Part shown: positions 42,266 through 57,754 of the stretch, piece by piece
How positions within the stretch are numbered: position 1 is the first letter of the stretch
How the letters are laid out: each line of letters opens with the position of its first letter
DNA from: Rikenellaceae bacterium
GTDB lineage: Bacteria > Bacteroidota > Bacteroidia > Bacteroidales > Rikenellaceae
Assembly: GCA_015060165.1 (NCBI GenBank)
Contig: SUZC01000006.1
Coordinates: 49,744-113,743 of the forward strand
DNA: 64,000 nt
Reading direction: 5' to 3'
Program-made: the position numbers and the translations under genes
Notes under the pieces: model-generated
The model's input: only the letters and a program-made list of their open reading frames with translations
What the model was told of the DNA's origin: nothing
Database searches by the model: none

Positions 42266-43624
42266 TTAATCCACCACGTCCTCCATCATAAAATCGGGAC
42301 GAGCATCAGGCTCGGCAGTAAGCACCTTAATATTTGTAAATTTCACATTGCGAGCATGGCGCACGAAAAATCCCTTTGCAGGGAGAATGCCCCACATTGT
42401 AGCTTCAGGATAACTCTTCTCATGTTCGTCAACCACATTCTTACGAGTTTGGGATAATGCCTTGGCTGCGACACCGCCCTTGTGATGAATCGTGATGTTG
42501 TCGAGATGTATATTCTCAACCGGATATCCCGGCAAACCAGTAATCGAGCAACCCGTTGGCCCGGCATTTCGGACCTGAACATTGCTGATATGCACACCAT
42601 TTATCTTACCCACATTTTTCACATCTTCACCTTCGCGGTAACCACGCGCACGATTGCCCAAACGTATGAAGATAGGCGACTCTGTCTCCTCAACAACAAT
42701 ATTGCTAACGTTAACATTTTCCAACACTCCACCATCGACCATTTCAAGCGAGATTGCAGAAATACCATTCCAGCGACCAAAAATCTTCTCCTTCTGGTCA
42801 TAGCTCGGCTTAACCACAATATTGGAGATATTGATATTACGGAATCCGCCATTTGTCTCAGTACCCAACTTGATGGCATTACAATGGGTTGAAACCACAC
42901 AATTTGAGATTGTAATATTCTCACACAAACGTGGCGATGTACTTTTCAGCACGATTCCATCATCGTCGGAATCAGAAATCAGATTTGTCACGACGACCTC
43001 ATGGCACCCATCCAAATCGAGAGCGTCGTTATTGCAATTATTGCGATTATAGATTGTCACACCATCGATTTTCACACGGTCGCAAGCTAAGAAATGCTGC
43101 ATCCAACAGCCTGAGTTGCGGAGCGTTATATTGCGAATGGTGATGTCCTGACTCTGGATAAATCTGAGCAGGTGCGGACGAGTGATACCTTCGTCGGTCT
43201 CAGCCGTTTTCTTAAATTTTCTACCTCGGCCATCAATTGTACCGTAGCCGTCGATAACCACATTGGTCACTTTATCGGCAAAGATTAGCTGAATGGTCTG
43301 ACGCTGAGTACGGAGCGATACATAATCGGTGTTGACTGCCTTGTAATCCTCAAGATTTGTGCTGCCATATAGTGTTGCACCGTGCTCCAAATAAAGATGA
43401 ACATTGCTTTTCAGGAAAATCGAGCCTATCGTATATCCTCCCGTCGGAACAACCACACGGCCACCACCAGCAGCCGAGCAAGCATCGATTGCTCGCTGCA
43501 CAGCCTTGGTACTAAGTTTTGAGGTGTCGCGTATAGCACCATATTTCAGGATGTTAAAGTCGGCCGCCTGCACAGAAATAGCCGCAAAGACCAAAGCCAC
43601 GAAAGTAAATAACGCTTTTTTCAT
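42266..43624 (-). CDS. GH28-family pectin-type glycoside hydrolase (polygalacturonase-like)
   Basis: Signal peptide; parallel beta-helix repeats with NNDALDLD, DSDDDGIVLKS and HCNAIKLGTE resembling GH28 catalytic motifs. Confidence 0.8.
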   Translation of the reverse strand: MKKALFTFVALVFAAISVQAADFNILKYGAIRDTSKLSTKAVQRAIDACSAAGGGRVVVPTGGYTIGSIFLKSNVHLYLEHGATLYGSTNLEDYKAVNTDYVSLRTQRQTIQLIFADKVTNVVIDGYGTIDGRGRKFKKTAETDEGITRPHLLRFIQSQDITIRNITLRNSGCWMQHFLACDRVKIDGVTIYNRNNCNNDALDLDGCHEVVVTNLISDSDDDGIVLKSTSPRLCENITISNCVVSTHCNAIKLGTETNGGFRNINISNIVVKPSYDQKEKIFGRWNGISAISLEMVDGGVLENVNVSNIVVEETESPIFIRLGNRARGYREGEDVKNVGKINGVHISNVQVRNAGPTGCSITGLPGYPVENIHLDNITIHHKGGVAAKALSQTRKNVVDEHEKSYPEATMWGILPAKGFFVRHARNVKFTNIKVLTAEPDARPDFMMEDVVD

Positions 43625-43862
43625 ATTAAATTATCTGTTAGTAGTTATATCGATACATCTCTACAAAGTTAACCATTTAATGAATAATACAAAACATTTT
43701 AGCGTTGGAATTACATAAAAGGCAGCCTTGAAAGATATTGAAAAGTATCTAGCATAATGATTGCGAAATTGGCAGAATTCTGCAAAGCAGAATATCTTTT
43801 GTAATATAAGCAGCTGTAAGTGTACAAGCACCCACAACTGCTTATATCACAAAGCTTATATC

Positions 43863-43889
43863 ACAAAAGCCACTCTTGCGAGTGGCTTT
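43863..43889 (-). terminator. Orphan terminator, proposed ancestral terminator of tRNA-Arg
   Basis: 10-bp stem aaagccactc / gagtggcttt, TTTTG on minus strand, 20 nt downstream (minus sense) of the left 13-nt tRNA fragment. Confidence 0.6.
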
Positions 43890-43908
43890 CTTATTACGCA
43901 TTGCGCTC

Positions 43909-43921
43909 GTGATTCCGGCGG
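43909..43921. repeat. Left copy of 13-nt direct repeat gtgattccggcgg (att-like)
   Basis: Exact match to 57680..57692, which is the 3' acceptor/T-stem end of tRNA-Arg. Confidence 0.85.
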
Positions 43922-44188
43922 TGGAGGCGATGTTGCTTGTTAGTCTCAAACGCTCAAAGCGTTGTGCGATTTTCGTGGTATTCACTCACACCACACTCAC
44001 AAATAAATTCATATATTTTCTTACTCGGAAAGTACTGAAGATAATACATTGATATATAATAATATAAATATGTATGTTATACTATTCTTCTTGTGCTTTT
44101 TGTCTTGTTTATCGGTTTTAGTTCGTTTTGCTACTCAAAGATAGTAAAATTAGTGATAAACTAGGCATACTATCTGTTTTATTTAATT

Positions 44189-45457
44189 TCAAACCCTATC
44201 TACTCGTCTACATTTAAGAATTAATGGTTGTCCGTTACTGTTCTTTATTCCACTATTAATGGTAGTAATATTGCCTCGCTTGATAGGGTGATCTGAATAT
44301 GTAATAGCTGTTTTGTTATGTAAAGAAAAATGAGAATAAATAAATATTTCTTTAATGTAACAATCCAACAATAGCTGTAAGCGTTTTGCATCAAAATGCT
44401 TAAACGCGAGTAACTCCATACTTGTTGACTCTTTTAAATCATCAATAACCACTTTGATTTCCACATCCGCACAATTGCGAATCTCTATCATAAAACTATA
44501 TTTGGGATCTATTTTGCCACTTGTGCTAATCTTAACATTTTTTCTATCCCATACTTTATGTAATGTATCCCTTAAATTCGTAAAAATAATATTAAGTCCT
44601 GCTCTTTCCACAACATCTAAATCTTTCCACCAATCTTTAAACTCTAGCAATTCAAAAACTGGCAGATGCTTTAGGATATTGTACTCATTAATGTATTTAA
44701 TAAACTTACGTCCATAATAAGTAAGAGCATTGTATCTCAAAAAGAACAACTCTGTTTCCGTTAATTGAGCTCTAATGATTTTTAAATAATCTTTTTTAAT
44801 TTCCTCTGGGATTGTTTTAGCATTATCAATTAGGTCATATATGCGATACAATGTTCTATAATATGCACCTATTTTATCTTTATTTTTAATGTAGAAAAAC
44901 ATATATATTTTTAGTGCCTCTGCTTGATTCTGCTCAAAAGACTTTTTTGGAGTAAAAGACCTTTGAAGTTTCTCTTTTTCAAAGTCAAAGAAGTCTTTAT
45001 TGTTATAAGAATACTCTCGTACTTCATAGTTATTGTCTTCATTTGAATCAACATTCTGCGTTTTTGTCTCCGCAAATGTTTTATATACTCCGCACAATTC
45101 AGACACTTGACTTTGATACAAATGTAATAATTCAAAGAATAAATCATGAAAGCGCTCTATCTCAAGTTGCTGTTTGTTATCCGATGTTGCTGTTTGTTGA
45201 TGATTGAATGTTTTAATAACCAAGAGGACGCTTATTACTCCAAAAATGGTTCCTAAAACACCTCCGACGAAATCACCATATGTTCCCAATAGTGCATAAT
45301 CTGCTATATAGTCTGCTTTAAATGGTTTAATTATATGTCCCCATCCAAAAGCTATACCTGATAAAACGATAAAAACAAAGGAAAGCACAACATATGCCCA
45401 TCTAGACGATAATATTTTGTCTACAAATTGACTGATCTTACTAAAAATTGCCTTCAT
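44189..45457 (-). CDS. Putative abortive-infection protein, AbiC-like (putAbiC-type N-terminus)
   Basis: Two N-terminal TM helices with GTYGDFVGGVLGTIFGVISVLLVI then ERFHDLFFELLHLY, matching the recalled putAbiC pattern; rest unknown. Confidence 0.5.
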   Translation of the reverse strand: MKAIFSKISQFVDKILSSRWAYVVLSFVFIVLSGIAFGWGHIIKPFKADYIADYALLGTYGDFVGGVLGTIFGVISVLLVIKTFNHQQTATSDNKQQLEIERFHDLFFELLHLYQSQVSELCGVYKTFAETKTQNVDSNEDNNYEVREYSYNNKDFFDFEKEKLQRSFTPKKSFEQNQAEALKIYMFFYIKNKDKIGAYYRTLYRIYDLIDNAKTIPEEIKKDYLKIIRAQLTETELFFLRYNALTYYGRKFIKYINEYNILKHLPVFELLEFKDWWKDLDVVERAGLNIIFTNLRDTLHKVWDRKNVKISTSGKIDPKYSFMIEIRNCADVEIKVVIDDLKESTSMELLAFKHFDAKRLQLLLDCYIKEIFIYSHFSLHNKTAITYSDHPIKRGNITTINSGIKNSNGQPLILKCRRVDRV

Positions 45458-45608
45458 ATGGTTAGTAATTTAAGGAATAACATTTATAAATGTATAATGC
45501 CTCAATGTTCTTGTAAACATTTGATTATACAAAGACTACTACCACCGATCAATTATAAATCTTTTAACCAAACACTTTGGCAAGTCTCAACCTAAAGTTT
45601 TTGATATT

Positions 45609-46007
45609 TTACTGTTTTAATGCTCCCTCTACTGCTTGCTTTGCTGCGATTTTAGCTCCACCTCCAATAATCCTAAGTAACTTATAGCTTGCGAGCATGT
45701 TATTTAACGCTCCTGCTGCAACCAACAAACTATTTTGTAATTGTATAACAGACATACCCTCTACAATATTACTGGGGACAACAGTTAAAAAGCAATTGTG
45801 AGGTGTAAATTGAGTGAGGTCTGGATACTTGTTAGTTATATAACTATTACAAGTCTTCAACTCTTCTGCATTAGCACGCAATACAGCATTAAATATGTGC
45901 TGTAAATCCTCTCTGACTATGTCTTGTTGTTCTTTTACATCTTTAGCAACTTCAAAGGACTCCTTACAAGCATCTGCAAACAACTTTATTCTATCTTGAT
46001 TATCCAT
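45609..46007 (-). CDS. Hypothetical 132-aa protein (Gly/Ala-rich amphipathic C-terminus)
   Basis: Clean ORF 27 nt downstream of ATPase gene on same strand; no recognisable motif. Confidence 0.5.
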   Translation of the reverse strand: MDNQDRIKLFADACKESFEVAKDVKEQQDIVREDLQHIFNAVLRANAEELKTCNSYITNKYPDLTQFTPHNCFLTVVPSNIVEGMSVIQLQNSLLVAAGALNNMLASYKLLRIIGGGAKIAAKQAVEGALKQ

Positions 46008-46034
46008 ATTATAAAAGTATTAAAAACAATAAAC

Positions 46035-47360
46035 TTAATCTTTTAAGCATCCGAGTGGGATTACCTTCACGCCATCCTCACGAGTATATGCAAACTCTCC
46101 ACCGGTCAGCACAATCAACAGGTCTGGTTCACGGAGAGGCATCTGCTTCTCGGTTTTATTGCGCTCGCGGATCAGTTCTTGCAGTTGCAGAAGATGCTTT
46201 GCTCCCTCATCAATATCTCGGCTGCCCAACTTACACTCAATAAGTGCATATCGCTGGTCATCAAGATGAAGTACAATATCAGCCTCCAAGCCATATCTAT
46301 CATGATAGTAAGATACTCGACCTCCCATAGCTTGTGAATACACTCTTAAATCTCGAATACACATACACTCGAAGATAAAACCAAAGGTTTTCAAGTCTAG
46401 TTCAAGCGATTTTGGCGATGCTCCCATTGCTGCCACAGCGATAGATGGATCAATGAAGCATCTCTTCTTGCCAGAGCGAATAGCAGTTGCTGAGCGAATA
46501 GCCGGACACCACGCATCGATATCCTCAATCACAAATAGGCGTTTCAATGCATCAACATACTCATCAAAGGTTGCTTGCACAGTTGTCTCCATTTCAACCT
46601 TAACATCAGCAAGCATTGCCGTCTTCTTTGCCAAGGTGCATAGATTGCGAGCATAGGAACGCAAAATGAGTCTAGCAAGTTCAGGATTACGCTGAACTCC
46701 ATCGACTCGCGAAATATCATCTTCGCACACCTTATTGAGGTAATCTTTGGCAATAAGCAATTGTGCCCTTTCGCTTTTCACATTAAGCGAATCTGGCCAA
46801 CCGCCTCGACAAGCCAACATTATCAACTCCTCAATCGATAACTTTGATGTGATACCGTCAATGTCCAATGACCTGTTGTCAAATAACTCAAGGAAAGATA
46901 TTTCACCTGACGACTCTTTCGACTCATATAGGCTCATAGGATACATCGTCATAGTAGCAATTCTACCAGTACCTGTATGCATTTGCCTTTGCTCCTCGGG
47001 AGTATCCTCGTCGCCATTATTCTTTATTACGGTAGAGCCGGTAAGAATAAACTGACCTTTCAGCCCCCTTTGGTCAACGGCATTGCGTACAGCATCCCAC
47101 AAAATAGGTATATCCTGCCACTCATCAATCAGTCGAGGTGTTTCTCCCTTCAACAGAATTGAGGGCTTTGTTCTTGCAGTAGCCAAATAACCTTCGCGTT
47201 TATCAGGGTCCTGCAATTTGATAAAACTTTTGGCTTGTTGTTCCGCAGTAGTGGTCTTACCACACCATTTGGGTCCCGTTATTTGCACAGCCCCAAAAGC
47301 CTCCAACCGCAAAGCAAGTTCGTCGTCAGCTATTCTACTTAAATACTCCTTATCAGCCAT
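46035..47360 (-). CDS. AAA ATPase with C-terminal PD-(D/E)xK-like domain (AAA_14/DUF4143 type)
   Basis: Walker A GPKWCGKTT, Walker B-like RLIDEWQ, C-terminal EADIVL...YALIECKLG nuclease-like motif. Confidence 0.75.
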   Translation of the reverse strand: MADKEYLSRIADDELALRLEAFGAVQITGPKWCGKTTTAEQQAKSFIKLQDPDKREGYLATARTKPSILLKGETPRLIDEWQDIPILWDAVRNAVDQRGLKGQFILTGSTVIKNNGDEDTPEEQRQMHTGTGRIATMTMYPMSLYESKESSGEISFLELFDNRSLDIDGITSKLSIEELIMLACRGGWPDSLNVKSERAQLLIAKDYLNKVCEDDISRVDGVQRNPELARLILRSYARNLCTLAKKTAMLADVKVEMETTVQATFDEYVDALKRLFVIEDIDAWCPAIRSATAIRSGKKRCFIDPSIAVAAMGASPKSLELDLKTFGFIFECMCIRDLRVYSQAMGGRVSYYHDRYGLEADIVLHLDDQRYALIECKLGSRDIDEGAKHLLQLQELIRERNKTEKQMPLREPDLLIVLTGGEFAYTREDGVKVIPLGCLKD

Positions 47361-47388
47361 ATCATAATCTTTTTGTGCTTACTATTTG

Positions 47389-47396
47389 CAAATATA
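47389..47396 (-). promoter_or_regulatory. Bacteroides-type -7 box (TATATTTG) for ATPase gene
   Basis: TAnnTTTG 29 nt upstream of ATG 47360. Confidence 0.4.
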
Positions 47397-47446
47397 ATGA
47401 TTATTCTTTAGATGGCAATGGAAATTTACTTTTTTGTCGCATTTCA

Positions 47447-47492
47447 ACTTGCGTTTTTGTGGTCAAACAACTTGTATTTTTGTGGTCAAACA
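47447..47492. repeat. Tandem 23-bp direct repeat x2 (21/23 identical) with degenerate flanking copies
   Basis: acttgcgtttttgtggtcaaaca / acttgtatttttgtggtcaaaca; weaker copies at 47425..47446 and 47493..47515 share TTTTGT core. Confidence 0.85.
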
Positions 47493-47632
47493 TCTAGCAA
47501 TTTTGTGATACAGCCCTGCTTAACCTAAAATATATAGAAATAGATAATTGTATTATGGCGTTACAATAACTTTATTTTCTCGATTTATGGCGTTTGACAA
47601 AGACTGAATATCTTACTATGAATCCATCAATA

Positions 47633-47685
47633 ATTTCAAAGTGCCAAATCCAAAATTTCAAAGTGCCAAAATGGCACTTTGAAAT
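47633..47685. repeat. Three copies of 14-mer atttcaaagtgcca (two direct, one inverted) forming a perfect 14-bp hairpin
   Basis: Copies at 47633..47646, 47655..47668 and inverted 47672..47685; last two separated by 3 nt. Confidence 0.9.
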
Positions 47686-47703
47686 AATAAATCTTAAAGT
47701 CCG

Positions 47704-47733
47704 CAACTCGTGAGCGCTCACGAGTTGTTTTTT
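47704..47733 (+). terminator. Plus-strand intrinsic terminator with no annotated gene upstream
   Basis: Perfect palindrome caactcgtgagc/gctcacgagttg followed by TTTTTT. Confidence 0.65.
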
Positions 47734-48175
47734 ACCCTTCGAAGTGGTTAGCCACACTAACCAGTTCGGTAAAACAGTCAGTTGATTAGTTTCACTAACC
47801 GACTGCAAATATTATCAAGTTGACTACAGATTGTAGTCATCTACACTTTCCCAAATAGAAAGTAAACCAATACCCTAATGAGCAATAGCGCCTCAAACAA
47901 GGACATCATTATTTATCCACTTTTTAACGCAATTTTCTATGAAATTTTACTATCTTTGTACTTGGATTAGGGCACCGAGTAGGAAAACTGAGAAGTGTGC
48001 ATTTGCTGTAAAAGCAAGGCGCAATTATCCGCCCTATTTCAGTCTAAAATTGTAACCGGCTAATAATCAGCATACTCTTTGTGCTTCATCGGAAGATGCG
48101 GGGATAATACATTGACATAAAACTACATATATATGTTGTCCGAGAAAGTATGGTGCAAGGATCAAAAATGTAATA

Positions 48176-49849
48176 TTACATTTCATGCCAACGCATTTCT
48201 CCATTTGCATAATCAATCTCTTGGCGTAATGTGTGAATTCCTTCCAATGTTAAGAATTCAGAATCCTCTGCCAACTTTAATTCACCCTTTGCGTTTCGCC
48301 TTTGCAAACTGCGTATAAGAAAACATGCTTTTTTTGCCCTCGTGATACCAACATAATGTAGGTCTAAATCCTGCTCCATATTGATATATTCTTGTTGGTG
48401 AAAGTCATTGTTTACTATACGCTTCGAAGGCAATTCCCATTCGCACACATTCAAATGAAATACAATATCAAATTCCAAACCTTTGGATTTATGTAGAGTC
48501 ATTAATTGTACTTCATTCGCATTCATAGGTTTATATGAATTCAAATCATCGTCATTAGATAAAACGGTCTTTAATTTAGAAATAGAAGAACCATCGTCTA
48601 CTTTTGGAAGAAGTATATCTGCAATCCTCTTGAAAGTATCTGGCAGTATTTCATAATTTCCATCAAATGATCGGACCTCTTGACCTGCATTATAAAGGCA
48701 TTTTTTTTCATGATTTGTGAGAGTGTTATAATCAACAAACTCATCGACAACACTCATAAATGGCATTGAATCATCAAAATAATATCTTAACAGATAAGTG
48801 AATAATCGAGATCTCGAATTTAGATCTTCATCAAGTTCTGTAGTCTTTACAATACGATGTGGAATTGATAGATGCTCATCTATTATTGTTTGAGTCCTGA
48901 TGTTTTTGACAAGTATTGCAACCTTGCAATTTTCCGTAACGTTCCATTTGTTGCATATACTATTAAGTTTATTATTAATAAATTCAGCAATTGATTCTTC
49001 GGCACCTTGTACTCTAATTAGGAACATTGAGTTGTCCTCAGTTTCAAGTATCTCAGAGTTTGGGTCCAATAAGCGATTAGAATAATTGATAATGGATGGC
49101 GCACACCGAAAATTTTCATTAAGAGTAAACGATTTAAATTGTGGGTTATCCCTTAATGAACGTATGTATTTATTATCTTTATGAGCAAATCCAAAAATCG
49201 ATTGATTGTCATCGCCAACTGCAATACCAACCAGCCCCATATTTACAAGATCTAAAAATATATCATTTGTATATGTATCGGCATCCTGAAACTCATCTAT
49301 AAAAATATATTTAAAGCGAGCTTTGAGGTAATTTCTACATGCTTGACAGTTTCTTATAATATGAAGAGCTAACAACTCCAAACTTTCAACAAGAATGCGC
49401 CCTTGTGAAAACAATGAAACGATTGATTCTAGTTGGGCTGGTTGTATGTTAATATAATCGGGATGTTCGGACGTTATCCACTTATAAGGCTCTGAACCTT
49501 CTTCACCAAGATCTTTTAGACTAGTTATTTCCAACCTCTTACTTGGACGCCCAAAAATGAAATTTCCGAAATATTCAATAATTTGCGTAAGACAAAAGTT
49601 GTCGATTGTACCAAAAAATGAATTTTTCTGTTGAATATCTCCGCTTGTTGTGCGGCTTTTAAGGTTGGAAGATGCCTTTCTGGTATAGGATATGGCAATC
49701 ACACCCTGATATGAACGCATTTCATCTTTTTGGATAATGCGTTTTATCATTTCAGAGATAACAAAAGTCTTTCCGCTACCAGGAGAAGCTAATACCACCG
49801 TATTACCTTCATGGTTAATAATAGCTTTCTGAATCTCAGTAGGCTCCAT
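48176..49849 (-). CDS. gajB: Gabija GajB, UvrD/Rep-family helicase
   Basis: Walker A ASPGSGKTF, FIDEFQD, HKSKGLEF, VGITRAK motifs; 14-nt overlap with upstream OLD-family gene. Confidence 0.85.
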   Translation of the reverse strand: MEPTEIQKAIINHEGNTVVLASPGSGKTFVISEMIKRIIQKDEMRSYQGVIAISYTRKASSNLKSRTTSGDIQQKNSFFGTIDNFCLTQIIEYFGNFIFGRPSKRLEITSLKDLGEEGSEPYKWITSEHPDYINIQPAQLESIVSLFSQGRILVESLELLALHIIRNCQACRNYLKARFKYIFIDEFQDADTYTNDIFLDLVNMGLVGIAVGDDNQSIFGFAHKDNKYIRSLRDNPQFKSFTLNENFRCAPSIINYSNRLLDPNSEILETEDNSMFLIRVQGAEESIAEFINNKLNSICNKWNVTENCKVAILVKNIRTQTIIDEHLSIPHRIVKTTELDEDLNSRSRLFTYLLRYYFDDSMPFMSVVDEFVDYNTLTNHEKKCLYNAGQEVRSFDGNYEILPDTFKRIADILLPKVDDGSSISKLKTVLSNDDDLNSYKPMNANEVQLMTLHKSKGLEFDIVFHLNVCEWELPSKRIVNNDFHQQEYINMEQDLDLHYVGITRAKKACFLIRSLQRRNAKGELKLAEDSEFLTLEGIHTLRQEIDYANGEMRWHEM

Positions 49850-51602
49850 ACATTGATTCGATATATTCTTTAGCTTTCTGAATCGGGAGACTAATCCTAT
49901 CTTTCTCCAGCGAAGTCAGACATGCTTTATGTTTCTTAAGAAACTCATACATATTTACCGCTTTGTGCTCTTTCATTTTGCAAATAATCTGATCTGCGGT
50001 TAGTTCATTTCCATAGTGCTCTTTCAAGTTTTGATTGATAGGACTATTGTATAAGTCTTCTTCCAATCCTTGTTGCGCAATCAGAATGTTATATTTCTCA
50101 AGTATAGCAATTAAGCTAGATGCGGCTGACGAAACATTTGCTGGAATATGTTCCTTATCCGCAAGGTCATGAATCAGTTCTTTATTTTGATCTATAACCA
50201 ATTTGTCCGCTTGATCTATTGTTTGTAAATCTAGATATGAAATTCCTCTTTCGATACCAGCATATCTATATTTATTTTTGTTAGCTATTTTAACGATATC
50301 ATTATCTGTGCGCAAAATCCATTTGATATTCATGGCATTTAAGATCTTAATATAAGTTGAGAATCCAACACCATCAACACTCATTACAGATATATTCAGC
50401 CTATCTAAATCAATGTTTAATTGCTTTGCTAAAGTATTGTATAGTATCATCTCTGATGGACCTTCAACAAGGATAACACAATCTGAAAAGAATGTTTCTG
50501 CAGGTATTACGCTCATGCGATACCCAAAGTCCTCAAAGTTCTCAGCAATGATTGTTGAACATCCATCTGATGCCACAAGTGTGTCATTACAATTTCGCTT
50601 GTAAAGGCGAATCATAGAATTGGGGCTAAATTCACAAACAATAAAAGGAGAGTGTGTGGTTAAGATGACTTGTTCCGATAATGTTTGTCCCAAATATATC
50701 GCTAGTTCCCGTTGCTGGTGTGGATGTAGATAAACTTCTGGCTCCTCGATAACAATTATTGAAACTTCATTTGATATATTCGTATTCTTGTTTCTGGAAG
50801 CCCATAATGAAAGATATATTTGATTTATTCGGCCCTCACCGCCGACAAGCATTCTTTTTTCTCCAAATTTAGACACTATGGATACATTTGATATGACTTT
50901 ATCCACATCTGAGGATGCAATATCAAATACAATCTGTTGCTCCCTATTGTGAATAGAGAGCTTATCTAATTCTACATTTATTTGCTCTGTTGCATTTTTA
51001 ATGTAGGATAACTTTGGAACTCTTTCATCAACCTCCCTTAACTTTGACACTATTTCTGCGTACAATCTATCATCCGCTTCAACAACCTCTTCATCTCTAT
51101 CCTCTTTAGCTTGCAATAGTAGCTCATTCTTGGATTTATTAATATATCCCCAGAATTCTCTTCTACTACCTATATATTTCAAGTTAAGATATTTTCTATA
51201 ATATGGGCTGTCTATTTCGACCAGATCATCTGTTGAGTCACTTTTGCCGCAATAGAATTTATAACTTAGCTTTCCGTCTTTGATATTAGCTTGATATTCT
51301 ATAACCAACTCTCCATCATCACTCAGTCTTCCCCCCATTCTTGCAACAACGCATTCTTCTGTAATGTCAGACAAGTATGCCCTAATAATAATGGATTTGG
51401 TGTCTTCATATGCATAAAAGTCAGAATCCATAAGTTCGTAATCATAGTCAGAGAGACTCCTATCTAAAAGGATTCTAAGAGCGTATATTAAATTTGTTTT
51501 ACCAACATCATTTGCTCCAAATATTAGACTATGTTTATTAAAATTCACAGTAACTTCTTTGAAGTTACGAAACCCCTTAATGTAGACCTTATTCAAAATC
51601 AT
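49836..51602 (-). CDS. gajA: Gabija GajA, class 2 OLD-family ATPase/TOPRIM nuclease
   Basis: Walker A GANDVGKTN, VIEEPEVYLHPHQQ, TOPRIM ILVEGPSE and TDNDIV motifs; 588 aa. Confidence 0.85.
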   Translation of the reverse strand: MILNKVYIKGFRNFKEVTVNFNKHSLIFGANDVGKTNLIYALRILLDRSLSDYDYELMDSDFYAYEDTKSIIIRAYLSDITEECVVARMGGRLSDDGELVIEYQANIKDGKLSYKFYCGKSDSTDDLVEIDSPYYRKYLNLKYIGSRREFWGYINKSKNELLLQAKEDRDEEVVEADDRLYAEIVSKLREVDERVPKLSYIKNATEQINVELDKLSIHNREQQIVFDIASSDVDKVISNVSIVSKFGEKRMLVGGEGRINQIYLSLWASRNKNTNISNEVSIIVIEEPEVYLHPHQQRELAIYLGQTLSEQVILTTHSPFIVCEFSPNSMIRLYKRNCNDTLVASDGCSTIIAENFEDFGYRMSVIPAETFFSDCVILVEGPSEMILYNTLAKQLNIDLDRLNISVMSVDGVGFSTYIKILNAMNIKWILRTDNDIVKIANKNKYRYAGIERGISYLDLQTIDQADKLVIDQNKELIHDLADKEHIPANVSSAASSLIAILEKYNILIAQQGLEEDLYNSPINQNLKEHYGNELTADQIICKMKEHKAVNMYEFLKKHKACLTSLEKDRISLPIQKAKEYIESMYGAY

Positions 51603-51618
51603 AAAAACGGATGGGTAT

Positions 51619-52272
51619 TTAGTGGTTATTTACAGAATTCACGAGATCGAACTTTATCAATTGCCAAACTTTACCCTGCAGACAGGTTGGATCTGGTTCT
51701 GTATCGGCCAATGTAAAGTTCGTTAATCCTGCAGTACACTCTTCTTTTGTTGCTCCATATGGATAACGCTCCTCATATAGAGACAGCATCTGCTCTATGG
51801 TGTATTTATCACGCAACATATGCAAATCCCAGAAGTCCTTCTTGCGACCACCACGCGACACCACATCCATCTTCATCGCAACAATATCTTCTACTGCTGC
51901 CATACGGATTGTGTCAAATTGTTCTTGTGGACGAATAAATGGGTCGGTATAAAACAAGTCAAGCTTTACGAAGTCATCCTTAGAATTGCCAACCATATAC
52001 GATGTTCCGAAGCCTACAATATCGCCGCAGTCGCCCTGACAATAAGGGAACTCCCTACGAAGAATCTCCTGCAATCGGCGAAAATCCAACGAACCATATT
52101 CTGCATCAGTAAATAGGTCTATATCATCAGACATACGATGACCATAGCGTAACGACAACGAAGTACCACCGACTAATCGAAATGGTTTAAATTCGTCTAT
52201 CTCCATCAATCGCTCCAAAGTGGAACGCAAAATTGGTTTGACGGTTTGGTATTGCAGTTCTTTACGCTTCAT
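51619..52272 (-). CDS. Nucleotidyltransferase AbiEii/AbiGii-family toxin
   Basis: GGTSLSLRYGHRMSDDIDLF motif typical of AbiEii NTases; 11-nt overlap with upstream HTH gene. Confidence 0.8.
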   Translation of the reverse strand: MKRKELQYQTVKPILRSTLERLMEIDEFKPFRLVGGTSLSLRYGHRMSDDIDLFTDAEYGSLDFRRLQEILRREFPYCQGDCGDIVGFGTSYMVGNSKDDFVKLDLFYTDPFIRPQEQFDTIRMAAVEDIVAMKMDVVSRGGRKKDFWDLHMLRDKYTIEQMLSLYEERYPYGATKEECTAGLTNFTLADTEPDPTCLQGKVWQLIKFDLVNSVNNH

Positions 52273-52783
52273 AACAAAGATACTGTTTTATGTTTGCCTT
52301 AATATTGTTTTCAAATGGAGACTTCGTTTTTAAATTGATGTTATCCAATATGACATCACGACCATAGAAACGGATAACCTCCTGTATCTCCTCCTCATTT
52401 CCTCGCTCAAACACACGATTGATTACATATCTGCTATGTGCTGTAAAGTCAATATTTTCAATCTTTGTATCCCAGAATAGAGTTTTGCGAAACTTTGTAA
52501 GGTCAGGGTGATGATTAGCTGATTGTTTACGCTTCTCCTCTGCAATGTCGTAGTATACCTGTAAGGTCATTAAGAATCCTTCCTCCAAACCGAGAGCCTG
52601 CTCTATACGAAGGGATAGAGGTGTATTCATTGACCTACGCCCACGAATAATAGCACTCAAAGTCTGTGGATGCTCACCAATTGACTCGGCAAACTGCCCA
52701 CTTTTGAGTTTTCTATTACCCAACTCTCGCTGCAAAAAAAGACCTGGGTGCAACCCCTTAAGTATTTCAATCATCCTATTCAT
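52262..52783 (-). CDS. HigA/XRE-type HTH antitoxin-like protein with C-terminal DUF6922-like domain
   Basis: N-terminal HPGLFLQRELGNRKL...QFAESIGEHPQTLSAIIRGRR HTH; C-terminal LFWDTK...INRVFERG...FYG pattern. Confidence 0.65.
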   Translation of the reverse strand: MNRMIEILKGLHPGLFLQRELGNRKLKSGQFAESIGEHPQTLSAIIRGRRSMNTPLSLRIEQALGLEEGFLMTLQVYYDIAEEKRKQSANHHPDLTKFRKTLFWDTKIENIDFTAHSRYVINRVFERGNEEEIQEVIRFYGRDVILDNINLKTKSPFENNIKANIKQYLCYEA

Positions 52784-52844
52784 ACCGCAAAAATAAACAT
52801 TTTTGTTTATAAAACCAAATTGCGAGCCAAAAAGTATTGATACC

Positions 52845-52879
52845 CTGCGAAAGTTGAATTTATTTTCAGACTTTCGCAG
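52845..52879 (-). terminator. Possible terminator after metallophosphoesterase pair
   Basis: Perfect 10-bp stem ctgcgaaagt / actttcgcag; T5 only 12 nt further on minus strand, so weak. Confidence 0.4.
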
Positions 52880-52905
52880 AGTATCGAGGCATATAGACTA
52901 CACCT

Positions 52906-53661
52906 CTATAAACTTCCCGCCGTCAAAACCACCGAGGTTTCTCGGTAGTAAACATAGCCGAGTTGGTTGCAGACAATGCGGGTATTGCCGATTGTTGCAT
53001 CTATGTTGGCGTGCGAGTGTCCGAAAATCCACGCATCGATACGGCTGTCGGCAATAAAGTCGCCCAACTCCGTTGCGAAGGCACTATTCAGCAAGTTGCC
53101 CTTATGTTCTGGAGCAACGACTGCCATTGTAGGCAGATGATGGGTTACCACCACGATACGCTCGGCAGTGCTTTCCGCAACACTCCGCTTGATAAAGTCC
53201 AGACATTTCTCGTGCTCGGCGTTAAAGTCAGCAGGAGTAAAGCGCCGACCATTGTACAGAATCTGCCGAAAGTCATTCATTCCTCGATGCACAAAATACT
53301 CATCCTCGGGGCGAATGTGCGACCAAAGAGTTGAGAGGATAAAATCGACATCATCAATCCTCACAACCTTATTCTGGTGGTAATGCACATTTGGCAGTAT
53401 CTTACGACTCCAACTATCGCCATAGGCTAACACATCGCCATTGCCATAAAACTCGTGGTTACCGGGCACCAACAACACCTCTCGGTAGTTTGCCGAAGCC
53501 CACTTCCAGAATCTCAGATTTGGCAATGACCTATCGCGCAGGTAACCTGTATCACCCGCAAAGACCAATACATCGCCAGTAACCTCAAACGGCATACTCT
53601 TTATAAATCTCGAATTATCCGACAACTCCAAATGGATGTCAGATGCAAATTGTATTTTCAT
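52906..53661 (-). CDS. Metallophosphoesterase (calcineurin-like), 251 aa
   Basis: SDIHLE, AGDTG, PGNHE, VTHH, FGHSH motif series. Confidence 0.85.
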   Translation of the reverse strand: MKIQFASDIHLELSDNSRFIKSMPFEVTGDVLVFAGDTGYLRDRSLPNLRFWKWASANYREVLLVPGNHEFYGNGDVLAYGDSWSRKILPNVHYHQNKVVRIDDVDFILSTLWSHIRPEDEYFVHRGMNDFRQILYNGRRFTPADFNAEHEKCLDFIKRSVAESTAERIVVVTHHLPTMAVVAPEHKGNLLNSAFATELGDFIADSRIDAWIFGHSHANIDATIGNTRIVCNQLGYVYYRETSVVLTAGSL

Positions 53662-53675
53662 AAAACTTATCCTCC

Positions 53676-54254
53676 TTATCTTTTACTCTGTTCTACTTGC
53701 TTTTCTATTATTCGCCTTACCTGTTCAAATGAGACAGGTGTAAAGTTGTTATTATCCACTCCAACATCATATTGTGTCGGGAATAGCATATGTAGTCGAG
53801 GCGCATCTATACCGGTGTTTTGCTTGCTGGTATGCACATGACCGAATAGCTGCCAAGTATCTCGATATGCCCCACCATAGCACAAGAATGGGCAGTGGTT
53901 GAGATATATCTTCTGCTTGCCTACCTCAATATGCATCTGCATCGCTATATGCTCAAAACGACTATAATATCCTTGCCTCAAATTCTTGATGTCGTGGTTG
54001 CCGACAATCAGGTAAATCTTACCATTAAGCCTATTAAGGATATTAGTCCATTCCGCCGAGCCTCCTAGGCAGAAGTCGCCGAGATGAAATACAATATCGT
54101 CAGGACCGACTACGCTATTCCAGTTGGCTATGAGCGTTTCGTTCATAACCTCCACATTCTTAAATGGCCTACCACAGAAGTTGATAATATTGGCGTGGTA
54201 GAAGTGAGTGTCGGATGTAAAGAACACCCTATCTCCATCAAATTTGTAATTCAT
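53676..54254 (-). CDS. Metallophosphoesterase (calcineurin-like), 192 aa
   Basis: SDTHFYH, LGDF, VGNHD, NHCP, FGHVH motif series; 14 nt upstream of second MPE gene. Confidence 0.85.
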   Translation of the reverse strand: MNYKFDGDRVFFTSDTHFYHANIINFCGRPFKNVEVMNETLIANWNSVVGPDDIVFHLGDFCLGGSAEWTNILNRLNGKIYLIVGNHDIKNLRQGYYSRFEHIAMQMHIEVGKQKIYLNHCPFLCYGGAYRDTWQLFGHVHTSKQNTGIDAPRLHMLFPTQYDVGVDNNNFTPVSFEQVRRIIEKQVEQSKR

Positions 54255-55110: not shown

Positions 55111-55902
55111 ATGAAACAGAATTTAGAGTTTATAGCACAACTAAACATTATTGCAATTGTATCCAAAGCAATACGCATCATAGATAAATGTTACAAGGAT
55201 GAATGTGAGAAGCGTAATCATGCAAAGGATAGAGAGCTGTTAGATTATACTCCGTTTCCAGAAGAGTGCAACTACGACGAGTTTTACACGATTGTAGAAC
55301 TAAGGCGAGTCGCTTCACCTTTAATAGTTGCCGATATGATAAGTGCTTATTATATGGACTCGTCATATGACAACACCTATTTGCTCAAACTATTAACCAA
55401 AAAGCTTGACCTTGAATTTGACACAGAGAGTGAGTATCGGTATTATAGGAGATTCGTTGATGACCACGACTTTAATATGCCTGGAACGTTTGATGTTGAA
55501 TGTTTTATTAAACATATGCCAATCTTGCGTAAACGCATTGAACTTACTTTTGGTGTGGACATTTACGCCATTAACAAGCCAAGCCAAAGCGTATCAAGTC
55601 GCTTAATCGCCCAGTGTTACTTACGCAAAGTATATGACTATGTCTGCGATGATGCTTTTAAGGGGATTTCATTTAAAGAGTTTGAAAGATGTGTTGTTGA
55701 GAGGAACTTTTCAAAGATTTACAACTCAGAATACGCAAAGGCTTCAATGATTAAGTATCTTATTTACGTTCTGAGTAAACATATAGATAGTGAATCTTGG
55801 TATAGAGATACCGCCCACAGCATTAATACAGAGCCGCAGAAATGCAGTGGCGCATCAGTGCCCAAACAATGGCGAAGGGAGTTAAACGCCATTAAAGCGT
55901 AA
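55111..55902 (+). CDS. Hypothetical 263-aa protein
   Basis: Clean ORF with ATG; Tyr/Asp/Cys-rich, no motif recognised. Confidence 0.5.
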   Translation: MKQNLEFIAQLNIIAIVSKAIRIIDKCYKDECEKRNHAKDRELLDYTPFPEECNYDEFYTIVELRRVASPLIVADMISAYYMDSSYDNTYLLKLLTKKLDLEFDTESEYRYYRRFVDDHDFNMPGTFDVECFIKHMPILRKRIELTFGVDIYAINKPSQSVSSRLIAQCYLRKVYDYVCDDAFKGISFKEFERCVVERNFSKIYNSEYAKASMIKYLIYVLSKHIDSESWYRDTAHSINTEPQKCSGASVPKQWRRELNAIKA

Positions 55903-55956
55903 GTCACCTCATGCCTTCTACACATTATCCATCAGCGCATTACCTTTTTTTCGGTT

Positions 55957-56469
55957 GTGCGCTGTTTCTTTGTGGCACATTGCCCTAGCGCCCGCCTGCG
56001 CTTTGCCTCGTATGACCCCAACCCGTATATCAACCGAGAGCCAACGCCCCACACTCTGCCGGAGTGCGTAACCTCAACGGCCAACAGCGACACAAAAGAG
56101 GCGATTTCACAGCCTCAACAAGTGCAAGCCGACCAAGTACCCCACCGAGCGGAGAAAAACGAAAATAGAGCCATAACAGCAAACCACCCGACCACATTAG
56201 CAATCGAGCATATCGAGCGAGCTGTGCAGGAACTTGTAGAGCGTGGCCTCAACATCGCAGAGGAACACTACGACTGGGTGCGTATAGGTTTTGCATTGGC
56301 CTCAACATACGGAGAGCAGGCAAGGCCACTATATCACGCTATATCGACACAATCGAGCAAATACAAGCGTAACGAGTGTGACGCTCAGTTTACCCATTGC
56401 CTACGCTCTAAGGGTATCAGTATTGGCACATTTTTAGATTACCTCAAACGGGTAGGTGTAAGATGGTAA
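55957..56469 (+). pseudogene. PriCT-2-like primase C-terminal domain fragment (remnant of mobile-element primase/helicase)
   Basis: EHYDWVRIGFALAS...GEQARPLYHAISTQSSKY...ECDAQF resembles PriCT-2; GTG start only, no internal Met, no helicase part. Confidence 0.45.
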
Positions 56470-56730
56470 GTTTACGAAAGTGGGACATATCAAAGAGGTA
56501 GGGGGGTCAAAAGTTTAACGCTTTTGCCCCGCAAACCTCGCCCCCAGCACAGTAAACACACACGAAACTTTTTTCAAAAACGCCGACTTTGTATTTTGCT
56601 TACAATTTGTAAGTAATCGGCCTGCGACCTATCTTCGATATGGCAAATTATTACCATATAATAGCAGAGAAACACCTATTTTACACCTAAAAACGGGCAT
56701 AAAACAGTACAAAACGGCTATAAAACGCAC

Positions 56731-56770
56731 AAAAAAACGGGGTTTTACACAGCAAAAACCCCGTTTTATG
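56731..56770. terminator. Strong bidirectional hairpin (13-bp stem) in island right arm
   Basis: aaaacggggtttt / aaaaccccgtttt with flanking A and T runs. Confidence 0.55.
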
Positions 56771-57041
56771 TATATATTTTATGTATATAATGACGTAATT
56801 GTTGAGGTCACACCTCAAAATATCGTGGTTGCGTATAACTCTGGTAATTTTGATTTCTACCGCTCTATGTAGCTATTTACTAACCGCATCGCCCTTTCGT
56901 TGAGGGGGCGTGTTTTTTATTTTGCATACCCCCTATGATACCCGACACCCTCAATCCCTTTGTAACACTCACGCAGTTTTTTCAAAAAAGTGATTTTTAC
57001 CGAGCCGGTCGAAGTGCCCCGCCTACCTCAACATCAACGCA

Positions 57042-57518
57042 CTATTCTTTGATTTCGGCGCAGTTGCTCAACCGTCTAACAAAACTATCCACCGCCTGCA
57101 ACAAATCGCCCATACAGCGCAATAAATTAGCTCTATCGGCCTCATCTTTGGGAGTGATACGGTAACACTCACGCAGTACCGCCAATACCTCAGCGGGATT
57201 CTCGTTTGGCTCACGCTCGATACGACACCCGCTATCTATATCGTGCAATACTTGTTTATAGTCAAAATCCATCTTCTGCAACTGGGTGAGGTAGTCGATG
57301 GCCGAAAAGCGCATTAGTATCTCTGCCATATCCTCGTAATGGCTACGAACTGCACAAACGGCATAATGGGGGAGCGTTGAAGTGTCGAGGGTTGAAGAAA
57401 TAGATTTTTTAGCCATTGTGTTGGCATTTCCGGCCTCGATAGGAGCATTGGTTTTGTTTGAATTGGGGATAACTTCAACCGTTGAGATAAAACCGTTAGA
57501 ATTTGTTGTGTTTTTCAT
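57042..57518 (-). CDS. Hypothetical 158-aa protein adjacent to tRNA end of island
   Basis: Clean ORF, no recognisable motif; sits where an integrase would normally be. Confidence 0.45.
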   Translation of the reverse strand: MKNTTNSNGFISTVEVIPNSNKTNAPIEAGNANTMAKKSISSTLDTSTLPHYAVCAVRSHYEDMAEILMRFSAIDYLTQLQKMDFDYKQVLHDIDSGCRIEREPNENPAEVLAVLRECYRITPKDEADRANLLRCMGDLLQAVDSFVRRLSNCAEIKE

Positions 57519-57631
57519 TGTAACAATATTTTTGGGGTTAATAACTGCGAAATATCAGTGTTACAACGCTATAAAAAAATCGACTACCCGCAAATCGAAA
57601 AAGAGTTTTGTTTGCACATTGTTTGTACATT

Positions 57632-57676
57632 AAAAAACAAATCAGCCACCTACATCGCTGTAAATGGCTGATTTTT
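57632..57676 (-). terminator. Current (island-borne) terminator of tRNA-Arg
   Basis: 10-bp stem aaatcagcca / tggctgattt followed on minus strand by TTTTTT, starts 5 nt after tRNA 3' end. Confidence 0.7.
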
Positions 57677-57679
57677 AAG

Positions 57680-57692
57680 GTGATTCCGGCGG
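57680..57692. repeat. Right copy of 13-nt direct repeat gtgattccggcgg (inside tRNA-Arg 3' end)
   Basis: Exact match to 43909..43921. Confidence 0.85.
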
Positions 57693-57754
57693 GATTCGAA
57701 CCCACGACCCACAGCTTAGAAGGCTGTTGCTCTATCCAACTGAGCTACGGAACC
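57681..57754 (-). tRNA. tRNA-Arg (anticodon TCT)
   Basis: Minus-strand GGTTCCGTAGCTCAGTTGGATAGAGCAACAGCCTTCTAAGCTGTGGGTCGTGGGTTCGAATCCCGCCGGAATCA folds as cloverleaf; anticodon loop CTTCTAA. Confidence 0.9.

Follow-up and report, generated by a model that had tools for sequence, protein, structure and literature searches.

A PDC-S01 ATPase-nuclease cassette with a lineage-specific accessory gene in a Rikenellaceae defence island

We analysed a pair of genes in a stretch of 64,000 nucleotides of contig SUZC01000006.1 from a Rikenellaceae bacterium (hereafter the window), and find that the pair is a cassette of a known defence candidate, PDC-S01, with a lineage-specific accessory gene, and that it does not amount to a general two-gene system. 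With moderate confidence, we favour the reading that a self-promoted, mobile PDC-S01 cassette has gained an accessory gene that is most likely portable. According to this reading, a cassette of about 1.9 kb that promotes itself and moves horizontally would have acquired a second gene in one lineage; this gene, which codes for a coiled-coil hairpin protein of 132 aa, would be read from the ATPase promoter, and its product may act on the co-expressed enzyme as regulator, adaptor or safety catch, without being a universal partner of such ATPases. The locus comprises the following features:

43975 to 44147, no strand assigned: non-coding element of about 170 bp after the cargo slot, common to loci with other cargo
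44189 to 45457, minus strand: putAbiC gene (Pfam putAbiC, 1.2e-18), in the cargo slot directly after the cassette
45609 to 46007, minus strand: gene of the 132-aa helical-hairpin protein, last of the cassette
46008 to 46034, minus strand: AT-rich spacer of 27 nt between the ATPase gene and the small gene, with no terminator-like hairpin in its sequence
46035 to 47360, minus strand: gene of the ATPase-nuclease (PDC-S01, 441 aa)
47389 to 47418, minus strand: predicted cassette promoter, Sigma-70-like, TTGCCA-16-TATATT (10/12)
47446 to 47491, minus strand: direct repeat of 23 nt in two tandem copies, GTTTGACCACAAAAAYRCAAGTT, lying upstream of the promoter and putatively operator-like
48176 to 51602: Gabija genes (PADLOC; GajB 2.8e-179, GajA 9.8e-199)

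The sequence-only reading of this DNA had described two ORFs, 27 nt apart, between an Abi-like gene and Gabija; the coordinates were reproduced on the minus strand, and the pair is indeed bordered by putAbiC on one side and by GajB and GajA on the other. Together with Gabija and putAbiC, the defence genes recognised by Pfam and PADLOC within the window include AbiEii. At other loci that carry the pair, the neighbours are Cas9/Cas1, a STAND NTPase, or type I restriction-modification (R-M) genes with GmrSD.

The 441-aa protein matches, above cut-off, both Pfam domains that had been proposed for it (AAA_14, PF13173, 2.6e-12, residues 24-146; DUF4143, PF13635, 1.6e-26, residues 213-378), as well as the PADLOC PDC-S01 model PDLC04790 (7.9e-56; residues 5-401 aligned to positions 10-390 of the 422 in the profile) and five more PDC-S01 models. 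The previously noticed Walker A motif GPKWCGKTT (residue 29) and nuclease-like C-terminal motif (EADIVL at residue 359, ECKLG at 375) are both present, and their key residues do not vary among 30 sequences (Walker A: G29, K31, G34, K35, T36; PD-(D/E)xK triad: D361, E375, K377); Walker B D79 is likewise invariant, and E80 is kept at 90% or more. Judged by its sequence, the ATPase is an ordinary, intact PDC-S01 member. PDC-S01 is a phage defence candidate of PADLOC (AAA_14 plus DUF4143; COG1373) from an 'embedded genes' survey (Payne et al., 2024; 10.1101/2024.01.29.577857). It is described as an ATPase plus PD-(D/E)xK and is catalogued by PADLOC as a single-gene candidate. It is reported to be among the defence candidates found most often in prokaryotes, and to be more frequent in rumen genomes than any other single locus; a representative tested in E. 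coli is placed outside the four protective candidates, with no protection against T7, T5 or T4. A survey of the PD-(D/E)xK superfamily includes DUF4143 (PMC3424549). The 441-aa protein shares with PDC-S01 the Pfam domain pair, the ATPase plus PD-(D/E)xK make-up and the defence-gene surroundings; the PDC-S01 entry is one gene, whereas the lineage of the window adds a co-oriented second gene that is absent from PADLOC. PDC-S01 remains a candidate whose function is unproven, in keeping with the earlier remark that the role of this ATPase family is not established.

The structure model of the ATPase (pLDDT 87.6) consists of an Orc/Cdc6-STAND-like AAA+ part, a helical/winged-helix middle and a putative C-terminal PD-(D/E)xK domain (DUF4143). 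No solved structure matched the protein by sequence (best E 0.055). Foldseek searches with the model found the archaeal AAA+ proteins SSO1545 (2fna; E 5.4e-07, TMt 0.48; among the best matches) and PAB2304 (2qen; E 3.3e-05, TMt 0.53), and, at E of about 1e-5, Orc1/Cdc6 initiators and NRC NLRs (STAND NB-ARC); all of these are only 11-14% identical to the ATPase and, unlike it, are missing the C-terminal PD-(D/E)xK. The same whole-protein query matched Card1, Cdn1 and VC1899 (6xl1, 9u49 and 1xmx; E 2.9e-05 to 2.9e-04), whose nuclease domains align with the C-terminal part of the ATPase at low global TM-scores (0.14-0.22); these enzymes are activated by cyclic oligoadenylate via CARF domains, whereas the window protein has an AAA+ ATPase in the regulatory position. 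Going by its domains, the ATPase, with a helical middle of the DNA-binding type, may respond to a nucleic-acid cue by ATP-dependent switching or oligomerisation, which would license DNA cleavage; the locus as a whole may have anti-phage activity. As a separate observation, the dN/dS of the ATPase in pairwise comparisons between loci is about 0.02; defence genes seldom show so low a value, and this counts against the reading that we favour.

A single conserved promoter is predicted ahead of the pair: the promoter block AGAATAATCATTATATTTGCAA is invariant in 7/7 aligned loci, and TATATTTG at 47396-47389 fits TAnnTTTG, the -7 consensus of Bacteroidetes. The 23-nt repeats occur with variation in all seven loci, one of which (L007) has three copies. 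Neither a terminator-like site on the gene strand between the ATPase and the small gene nor a separate conserved promoter in the spacer was found. A contig from an RNA library (run X4) spans the junction of the two genes and diverges at 45611; it may stem from contaminating DNA and cannot prove a single transcript. Runs X8 and X10 cover parts only, and X11 contains an ATPase allele followed, from 46014, by sequence unlike the window, which at the 88% threshold is indistinguishable from a divergent allele of the small gene. We infer that the ATPase and the small gene are co-transcribed.

In 9/9 loci with visible upstream DNA, the small gene lies 22-27 nt behind the ATPase (the window, L002, L003, L005-L008, L010 and L012), whose ATPases are 97.5-100% identical; these loci are mutually related and perhaps represent 4-5 allele lineages, not nine independent events. 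The two genes have stayed linked despite synonymous divergence of up to 0.55 for the ATPase and 0.84 for the small gene, and despite recombination within the cassette (dS of 0.43 against 0.04 between the window and L002). In support of mobility, the pair was found in metagenome-assembled genomes labelled Alistipes, Alloprevotella, Bacteroidaceae and Bacteroidales, labels that can be wrong, with differing flanks. This tight and persistent linkage, the purifying selection on both genes and the defence-island setting would be expected of an obligate two-gene defence system, with the small protein as the effector or sensor on which the ATPase-nuclease depends. Against this, the small gene was found in none of the 29 ATPase homologues at 47-87% identity, all of which keep the catalytic residues; moreover, the PADLOC model of the family is single-gene and the small protein has no enzymatic or membrane feature (Pfam, model, composition), and we hold an obligate pair to be highly improbable. 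Nor was a consistent small downstream ORF of any other kind found behind those 29 homologues. The earlier suggestion of an NTPase-nuclease plus a small partner is not supported as a general architecture, given the single-gene entry, these 29 homologues and the distant relatives of the small protein, which were seen without the ATPase in 6/6 contexts; what stands of the proposed module is a compact, linked unit in a defence island with a conserved small gene. Homologues of the small protein do follow such ATPases in the nine close loci, but fail to do so in the six contexts of distant relatives. Since the small ORF has homologues and linkage, the two-gene idea is not refuted; with the broader homologues of the ATPase lacking the partner, it holds only in a restricted, lineage-specific version, in which the small gene accompanies the ATPase within a single narrow lineage.

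A chance frame can be dismissed for the small ORF: 20 clusters of homologues were found at E<=0.001, and its dN/dS of 0.05-0.12 (15 pairs) is that of a real protein. Its product is modelled as a helical hairpin (pLDDT 79.9) with a conserved CN..I..KYP tip, in which residues 87-131 form a single long helix that takes in the Gly/Ala-rich C-terminus. This C-terminus had been called amphipathic; the quoted sequence was correct, and the amphipathicity is weakly supported (hydrophobic moment at most 0.43). A transmembrane or pore-forming C-terminus is not supported (maximum Kyte-Doolittle 1.36; the helix packs in the hairpin), and a DNA mimic was rejected, since the protein is near-neutral (15 acidic vs 14 basic residues; pI 6.1). 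Neither the sequence nor the family profile matched anything in Pfam, PADLOC, NCBIfam or PHROGs; solved structures gave a best E of 0.062 by sequence, Foldseek of the model gave nothing at E<=0.001, and the best score in the protein atlas (0.82) is at chance level. In VIA-align, a large number of unrelated helical hairpins reached Z of 9-10. The elements of the model (long helix, beta-hairpin, long helix) follow one another as in the prefoldin beta subunit (1fxk_A, 2zdi), with a VIA Z of 9.5 and an rmsd of 2.7 over 100/107 residues; by the tool's own guidance, values up to about 13 are commonplace among helical hairpins. For 2zdi_B, the Foldseek TMt is 0.75 but the E-value 1.7. With no Pfam prefoldin match and no sequence similarity, the modelled resemblance to prefoldin is one of shape only. 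A lead to the C-terminus of LmuA of Lamassu (PDLC00239, E 0.0086; 9ux7_A, Z 8.9) was dropped since none of six other family members matched it at E up to 0.1.

The small protein belongs to a rare, undescribed family of gut Bacteroidales, which is the new part of the locus. It comprises about 115 clusters (116-141 aa), of which about 95 are in non-ATPase branches. Among 401 order-level genomes the single sequence was found only in G000, as was the family profile among 401 phylum-level genomes; phage and plasmid records gave no match (tblastn), and none of 21 pattern matches in viral contigs was confirmed. The only fused form is the 255-aa P0069, a single member whose extra half has no Pfam domain. 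Elsewhere, the neighbours of the family are a type I R-M operon (HsdR), a HipA_C kinase, AIPR/AbiU and HNH genes, and in every context seen the small gene sits 2-83 nt from a co-oriented, effector-type gene. Since other members tightly adjoin unrelated genes of this type, a portable accessory is the most likely role of the small protein. The type I R-M operon has one member embedded within it, the same kind of position by which the PDC candidates were defined.

Because most of the small family has no such ATPase beside it, and ATPases of this family occur with no small gene, the small gene could also be an independent passenger, that is, a stand-alone defence-island gene that came to lie behind this ATPase lineage, shares the ATPase transcript and has no functional tie to it. 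The preponderance of non-ATPase branches, the 6/6 contexts and the 29/29 related ATPases bereft of the small gene argue for this account, as does locus L012, where the C-terminus of the ATPase is 100% identical and the small protein has diverged independently to 72.5%. In addition, the small gene leads its unit in L062, L066 and L067, where it is the first gene after 300-670 nt of non-coding DNA and can therefore have its own promoter. On the other hand, adjacency and spacing are retained in all nine loci despite recombination on both sides of and within the cassette, across a spacer that shows neither a terminator nor a separate conserved promoter, and we regard a stand-alone gene as possible but unlikely.

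The short distances to co-oriented and potentially toxic enzymes in every context would also suit an antitoxin-like inhibitor, with relatives acting likewise on HipA, AIPR, HNH and HsdR, and toxin-antitoxin systems are known to exchange small partners between toxins. However, a single fold would then need to neutralise chemically unrelated enzymes, the protein is near-neutral and no DNA mimic, and the ATPase needs no antidote, since most PDC-S01 genes occur without the small gene; moreover, the antitoxin gene of a HipA system normally precedes the toxin gene. Nor does the pair behave as a type II system, in which the toxin family is regularly paired with a small partner (0/29 ATPase homologues; unrelated partners elsewhere). 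We therefore judge an antitoxin to be highly improbable.

Returning to a portable accessory as the favoured reading, the ATPase and the small protein may interact physically or functionally; a complex prediction (30-row alignment for the ATPase, 19-row for the small protein) scored 0.00 in both runs and speaks neither way on binding. Rather speculatively, the CN..I..KYP hairpin family might be a portable subunit (sensor, adaptor or safety catch) that plugs into unrelated conflict enzymes and marks the edges of exchange slots for defence cargo. If so, this uncatalogued family, which recurs tightly spaced by five kinds of effector genes, would represent a novel type of modular defence component, one that none of the four databases searched contains. 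A partner kept by the ATPase through long divergence would offer a handle on PDC-S01 function and may show its trigger or restraint. A portable regulator would enlarge the defence toolkit by a reusable part; with a passenger, the locus would be one more PDC-S01 cassette.

Homology between loci delimits the cassette and the cargo slot behind it. It begins 130-690 nt upstream of the ATPase and stops at the stop codon of the small gene (45611-45616) in five loci; in L006 and L009, both cut by a contig end, it ends at 45624-45634. An Rfam scan of 43500-48300 gave only two matches, both sub-threshold and at chance level. A 34-nt direct repeat flanks the block in the window, as a target-site duplication would, but its left copy is absent in L002-L004, and the repeat is possibly due to chance in AT-rich DNA. 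The content of the cargo slot varies: L002 and L013 have AbiC there, L003, L004 and L010 carry two genes of 328 and 166 aa, and L011 has two of 123 and 140 aa, the 123-aa gene being seen also in L012. The non-coding element behind the slot (43975..44147) contains one copy of the 34-nt repeat, is 88-91% identical to L003 and L004 (blastn) and lies inside the long match to L002.

The feature under study consists of two ORFs of 441 aa and 132 aa lying 27 nt apart, as the sequence-only reading had proposed, with putAbiC on one side and Gabija (GajB and GajA) on the other:

44189-45457, putAbiC, neighbour of the pair
45609-46007, minus strand, ORF of the small gene (132 aa)
46008-46034, minus strand, AT-rich 27-nt spacer sequence between ATPase and small gene
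46035-47360, minus strand, ORF of the ATPase (441 aa)
48176-49849, GajB, neighbour of the pair
49836-51602, GajA, neighbour of the pair
51619-52272, AbiEii-like nucleotidyltransferase, island gene
52262-52783, HTH/DUF6922 protein, partner of AbiEii, island gene
55957-56469, PriCT_2 primase fragment (170 aa), far edge of the island
57679-57754, tRNA-Arg, far edge of the island

The motifs that had been quoted for the ATPase are present (GPKWCGKTT at residue 29, EADIVL at 359, ECKLG at 375), and the profile check returned both expected domains (Pfam DUF4143, 1.6e-26; AAA_14, 2.6e-12). The ATPase also matched the PADLOC family PDC-S01 (7.9e-56), and its gene is an ordinary PDC-S01 cassette, already known as a defence candidate. 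The PADLOC authors drew their 145 untested "phage defence candidates" from genes that lie within BREX, DISARM and type I R-M operons (10.1101/2024.01.29.577857). In later reports, PDC-S01 ranks as the fourth most common defence across prokaryotes and is described as a fusion of ATPase and PD-(D/E)xK domain, validation pending (PMC12988326); no single locus is more frequent in rumen genomes (PMC13356809); and a randomly chosen representative, challenged in E. coli B with T7, T5 and T4, falls outside the four protective candidates (10.1101/2024.09.26.614923). A 2012 survey of PD-(D/E)xK proteins includes DUF4143/COG1373 with the function entry "unknown" (PMC3424549). The accessible parts of the literature found on DUF4143, PDC-S01 and COG1373 describe neither a mechanism nor a small partner. 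Homologues of the ATPase (E<=1e-20) occurred in 56 of 401 order-level genomes, and the only complete copy in the window's genome is this one, alongside a sub-threshold fragment where a contig ends.

We aligned the window's ATPase with 29 homologues from order-level genomes (30 sequences; 47-87% identity). Walker A residues G29, K31, G34, K35 and T36, Walker B D79, and the nuclease triad D361, E375 and K377 were invariant. The AlphaFold model (pLDDT 87.6; pTM 0.88) was confident except for a disordered loop at residues 110-131. By sequence, the ATPase had no match among solved structures (best E 0.055). Foldseek placed the N-terminal two thirds of the model close to the archaeal AAA+ ATPases 2fna and 2qen, Orc1/Cdc6 and NLR/STAND modules, and aligned the C-terminus to the nuclease domains of Card1, Cdn1 and VC1899. 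Judging from these domains, an ATP-dependent switch of the Orc/Cdc6-STAND type likely controls the PD-(D/E)xK nuclease, which would likely act on foreign DNA. In 15 pairwise comparisons, dN/dS of the ATPase was 0.016-0.056 (~0.02 overall; dS up to 0.55), indicating very strong purifying selection. Such constraint is atypical of genes in defence islands and is a hint that the protein answers to many demands at once, self-assembly for example.

The small gene codes for a real protein. A word-indexed search with it yielded 20 clusters at E<=0.001, 18 of them full-length at 64-95% identity, and dN/dS was 0.05-0.12 with dS up to 0.84 (15 pairwise comparisons). With a pI of 6.1 the protein is close to neutral, and none of its segments reaches transmembrane grade; its model (pLDDT 79.9) contains a long helix at 3-44, a short one at 47-60, a small beta-hairpin at 65-75 and a long C-terminal helix at 87-131. 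The best-conserved residues across the whole family (K15, E16, C53, I57, K60, Y61, (P62), L94, A100, L101 and E127) centre on the hairpin tip. Judged against Pfam, PADLOC, NCBIfam and PHROGs, which hold no model for it, the small family appears undescribed, and its pairing with the ATPase is a new variant.

Twelve loci with close homologues (L002-L013) emerged from the genome and metagenome scans. The ATPase precedes the small gene in 9/9 loci with upstream DNA (window, L002, L003, L005, L006, L007, L008, L010 and L012), with a spacer of 22-27 nt. The contigs of L004, L009, L011 and L013 begin at or inside the small gene and lie outside this count; the first 56 nt of L004 still match the 3' end of the ATPase gene. 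Among close loci the ATPase protein is 97.5-100% identical, the DNA only ~90%; in L012 (3-362) the last 119 residues are identical while DNA identity falls from 100% to 73-78%, and the adjoining small protein is only 72.5% identical. The dS values of the two genes are discordant within the same genome pairs (0.43 vs 0.04 for window and L002; 0.19 vs 0.50 for window and L005), so recombination has taken place inside the cassette, and the gene arrangement has been kept despite it. The nine linked loci are kin; they may represent four or five allele lineages and do not count as nine independent events.

DNA homology to the window starts 130-690 nt upstream of the ATPase start and, in L003, L004, L005, L007 and L008, stops at 45611-45616, a few bases from the stop codon of the small gene; an RNA-library contig likewise diverges at 45611. 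In L006 and L009 homology stops at 45624-45634, which is the contig end. The block AGAATAATCATTATATTTGCAA, ~30 nt before the ATPase start codon, is invariant in 7/7 loci; within it sits TATATTTG, which matches the Bacteroidetes -7 motif, and the block is preceded by two or three direct repeats of 23 nt. On the gene strand, neither the intergenic spacer nor the stretch right behind the small gene holds a terminator-like hairpin. The homology limits, the invariant promoter block and the absence of such a hairpin between the genes point to a cassette of one putative promoter and two genes (~1.9 kb). From this layout we infer co-transcription, which contig 11 of RNA-library run X4 (45611-46541) weakly supports; the library may contain DNA, and the contig cannot prove a single transcript. 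A pig-gut RNA-library contig (X11 record 8) carries an ATPase allele of ~93% DNA identity and is unlike the window from 46014; its ATPase either lacks the small gene or is followed by a small-gene allele that has diverged strongly.

A proposed check was whether small-gene homologues systematically follow such ATPases, and outside the close branch they did not. In the loci of the best 29 of 87 ATPase matches in other genomes (47-87% identity; window's locus left out), tblastn matched the small protein in 0/29, two loci at 87% identity included, and no small co-oriented ORF lay consistently behind the ATPase; an obligate two-gene system is less likely. A HMMER profile search of 1.84 billion representatives returned 9 proteins, 4 of them distant full-length clusters, and a wider profile in a word-indexed search returned 115 small-family clusters. 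The ATPase-linked branch comprises only 18 full-length clusters and 3 fragments of these; ~95 belong to other branches (116-150 aa). The ATPase was absent from 6/6 recovered contexts of those branches:

G228:C7 (L057 3067-9283), 139-aa relative flanked by hsdS and hsdR in a type I R-M operon that is otherwise complete; it stops 2 nt short of hsdR
G401 contig 8, small relative 83 nt before an AIPR/AbiU gene
G576, small relative 40 nt before an uncharacterised 432-aa gene, then a membrane protein and a trypsin-like protease
G621, small relative 38 nt before an HNH gene
G1146:C89 (L072 1-797), distant small relative 17 nt after a HipA_C kinase gene (3.9e-22)
G1143:C24 (L073 36-5083), the small allele of G1146, then integrase and Alw26I-type R-M; upstream side is the contig end

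The relative in genome G228 is an embedded gene in the sense used for PADLOC candidates, yet matches no PADLOC model. Mrr and FRG/PDC-S15 genes lie near the relative in G576, which shares its upstream flank (a CAT-like gene) with G621; their downstream sides differ. In G1143, a sister genome of G1146, the integrase and R-M set is inserted ~190 nt after the small gene. The small family is rare: with a single-protein query it occurred only in G000 among 401 order-level genomes, and a profile query of the same set added one credible match, G228 (ten other rows, E 0.001-0.009). It occurred in 4/300 genomes from the family of G401 and in 4/91 from the genus of G576; of 401 phylum-level genomes, G000 alone had it.

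The small gene is a lineage-specific addition to a PDC-S01 cassette. That it is an independent passenger would fit the fact that the ATPase family and the small family each mostly live without the other. We place this reading somewhat behind that of a functional accessory of the ATPase. In favour of an accessory are the tight spacing, the single promoter and the persistence of the arrangement, together with the small family's habit of adjoining effector-type enzymes; an antitoxin role is less likely. What stands of the proposed two-gene defence module is an ATPase that is a defence candidate and a small gene kept beside it in the close lineage; the linkage is not general.

The genes downstream of the small gene vary:

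window, L002, L013, putAbiC
L003 (5461-6934), L004 (571-2044), L010 (821-1426), 328+166-aa pair
L011 (524-1324), 123+140-aa pair; the short contig of L012 (919-1290) shows its 123-aa gene as well
L005, convergent STAND NTPase
L007, two GmrSD genes, further on
L008, RND pump

Neither of these two pairs, which take the slot of AbiC in the window, had a convincing match in Pfam, PADLOC, NCBIfam or PHROGs, and both are possible unnamed defence cassettes. Upstream neighbours include Gabija in the window, a truncated integrase in L003 and type I R-M genes in L007; Cas1 and Cas9 lie beyond the cargo pair in L003. In L007 (2557-4121), the hsdM beside the cassette is split into overlapping ORFs of 211 and 315 aa, probably by a frameshift. 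The MAGs carrying the pair are titled Alistipes, Alloprevotella, Bacteroidaceae and Bacteroidales (ruminant and other faecal samples), which implies horizontal spread of the cassette, although MAG labels can be wrong. A ~170-bp non-coding element beyond the cargo slot (window 43975-44147; L003 7023-7191; L004 2133-2289) is common to loci with differing cargo (AbiC vs the 328+166-aa pair), suggesting that cargo is exchanged by recombination between the small gene and this element.

GC content is 29-38% in most 1-kb bins across ~44-52 kb, and 43-48% in the flanks; this low-GC block, the tRNA-Arg and the PriCT_2 fragment suggest that the island is an old integrated element. Its far edge (window 55111-57754), where 263-aa and 158-aa ORFs without a family also lie and no integrase was seen, looks like a decayed integrated element. 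Besides the AbiEii-like gene and its partner, the island stretch at window 51619-54254 holds two calcineurin-like phosphoesterases, one matching PADLOC PDC-S10 (8.2e-12). The 815 nt that separate GajB from the ATPase (side observation at window 47600-48175) are non-coding and without an Rfam match. They contain an 18-bp perfect palindrome (~47705-47722), a hairpin of 14 pairs (47655-47685) and a 22-nt repeat in tandem (47626-47669); parts of this gap are kept in L002, L003 and L005. A 34-nt direct repeat (window 44040-44073 and 48103-48136; 82% identical, 13-nt exact core) flanks a ~4.06-kb block of upstream region, ATPase, small gene and AbiC. The right copy is kept in L002-L004, where the left copy was not found, and the repeat may be the scar of an insertion or, in DNA this rich in AT, have arisen by chance.
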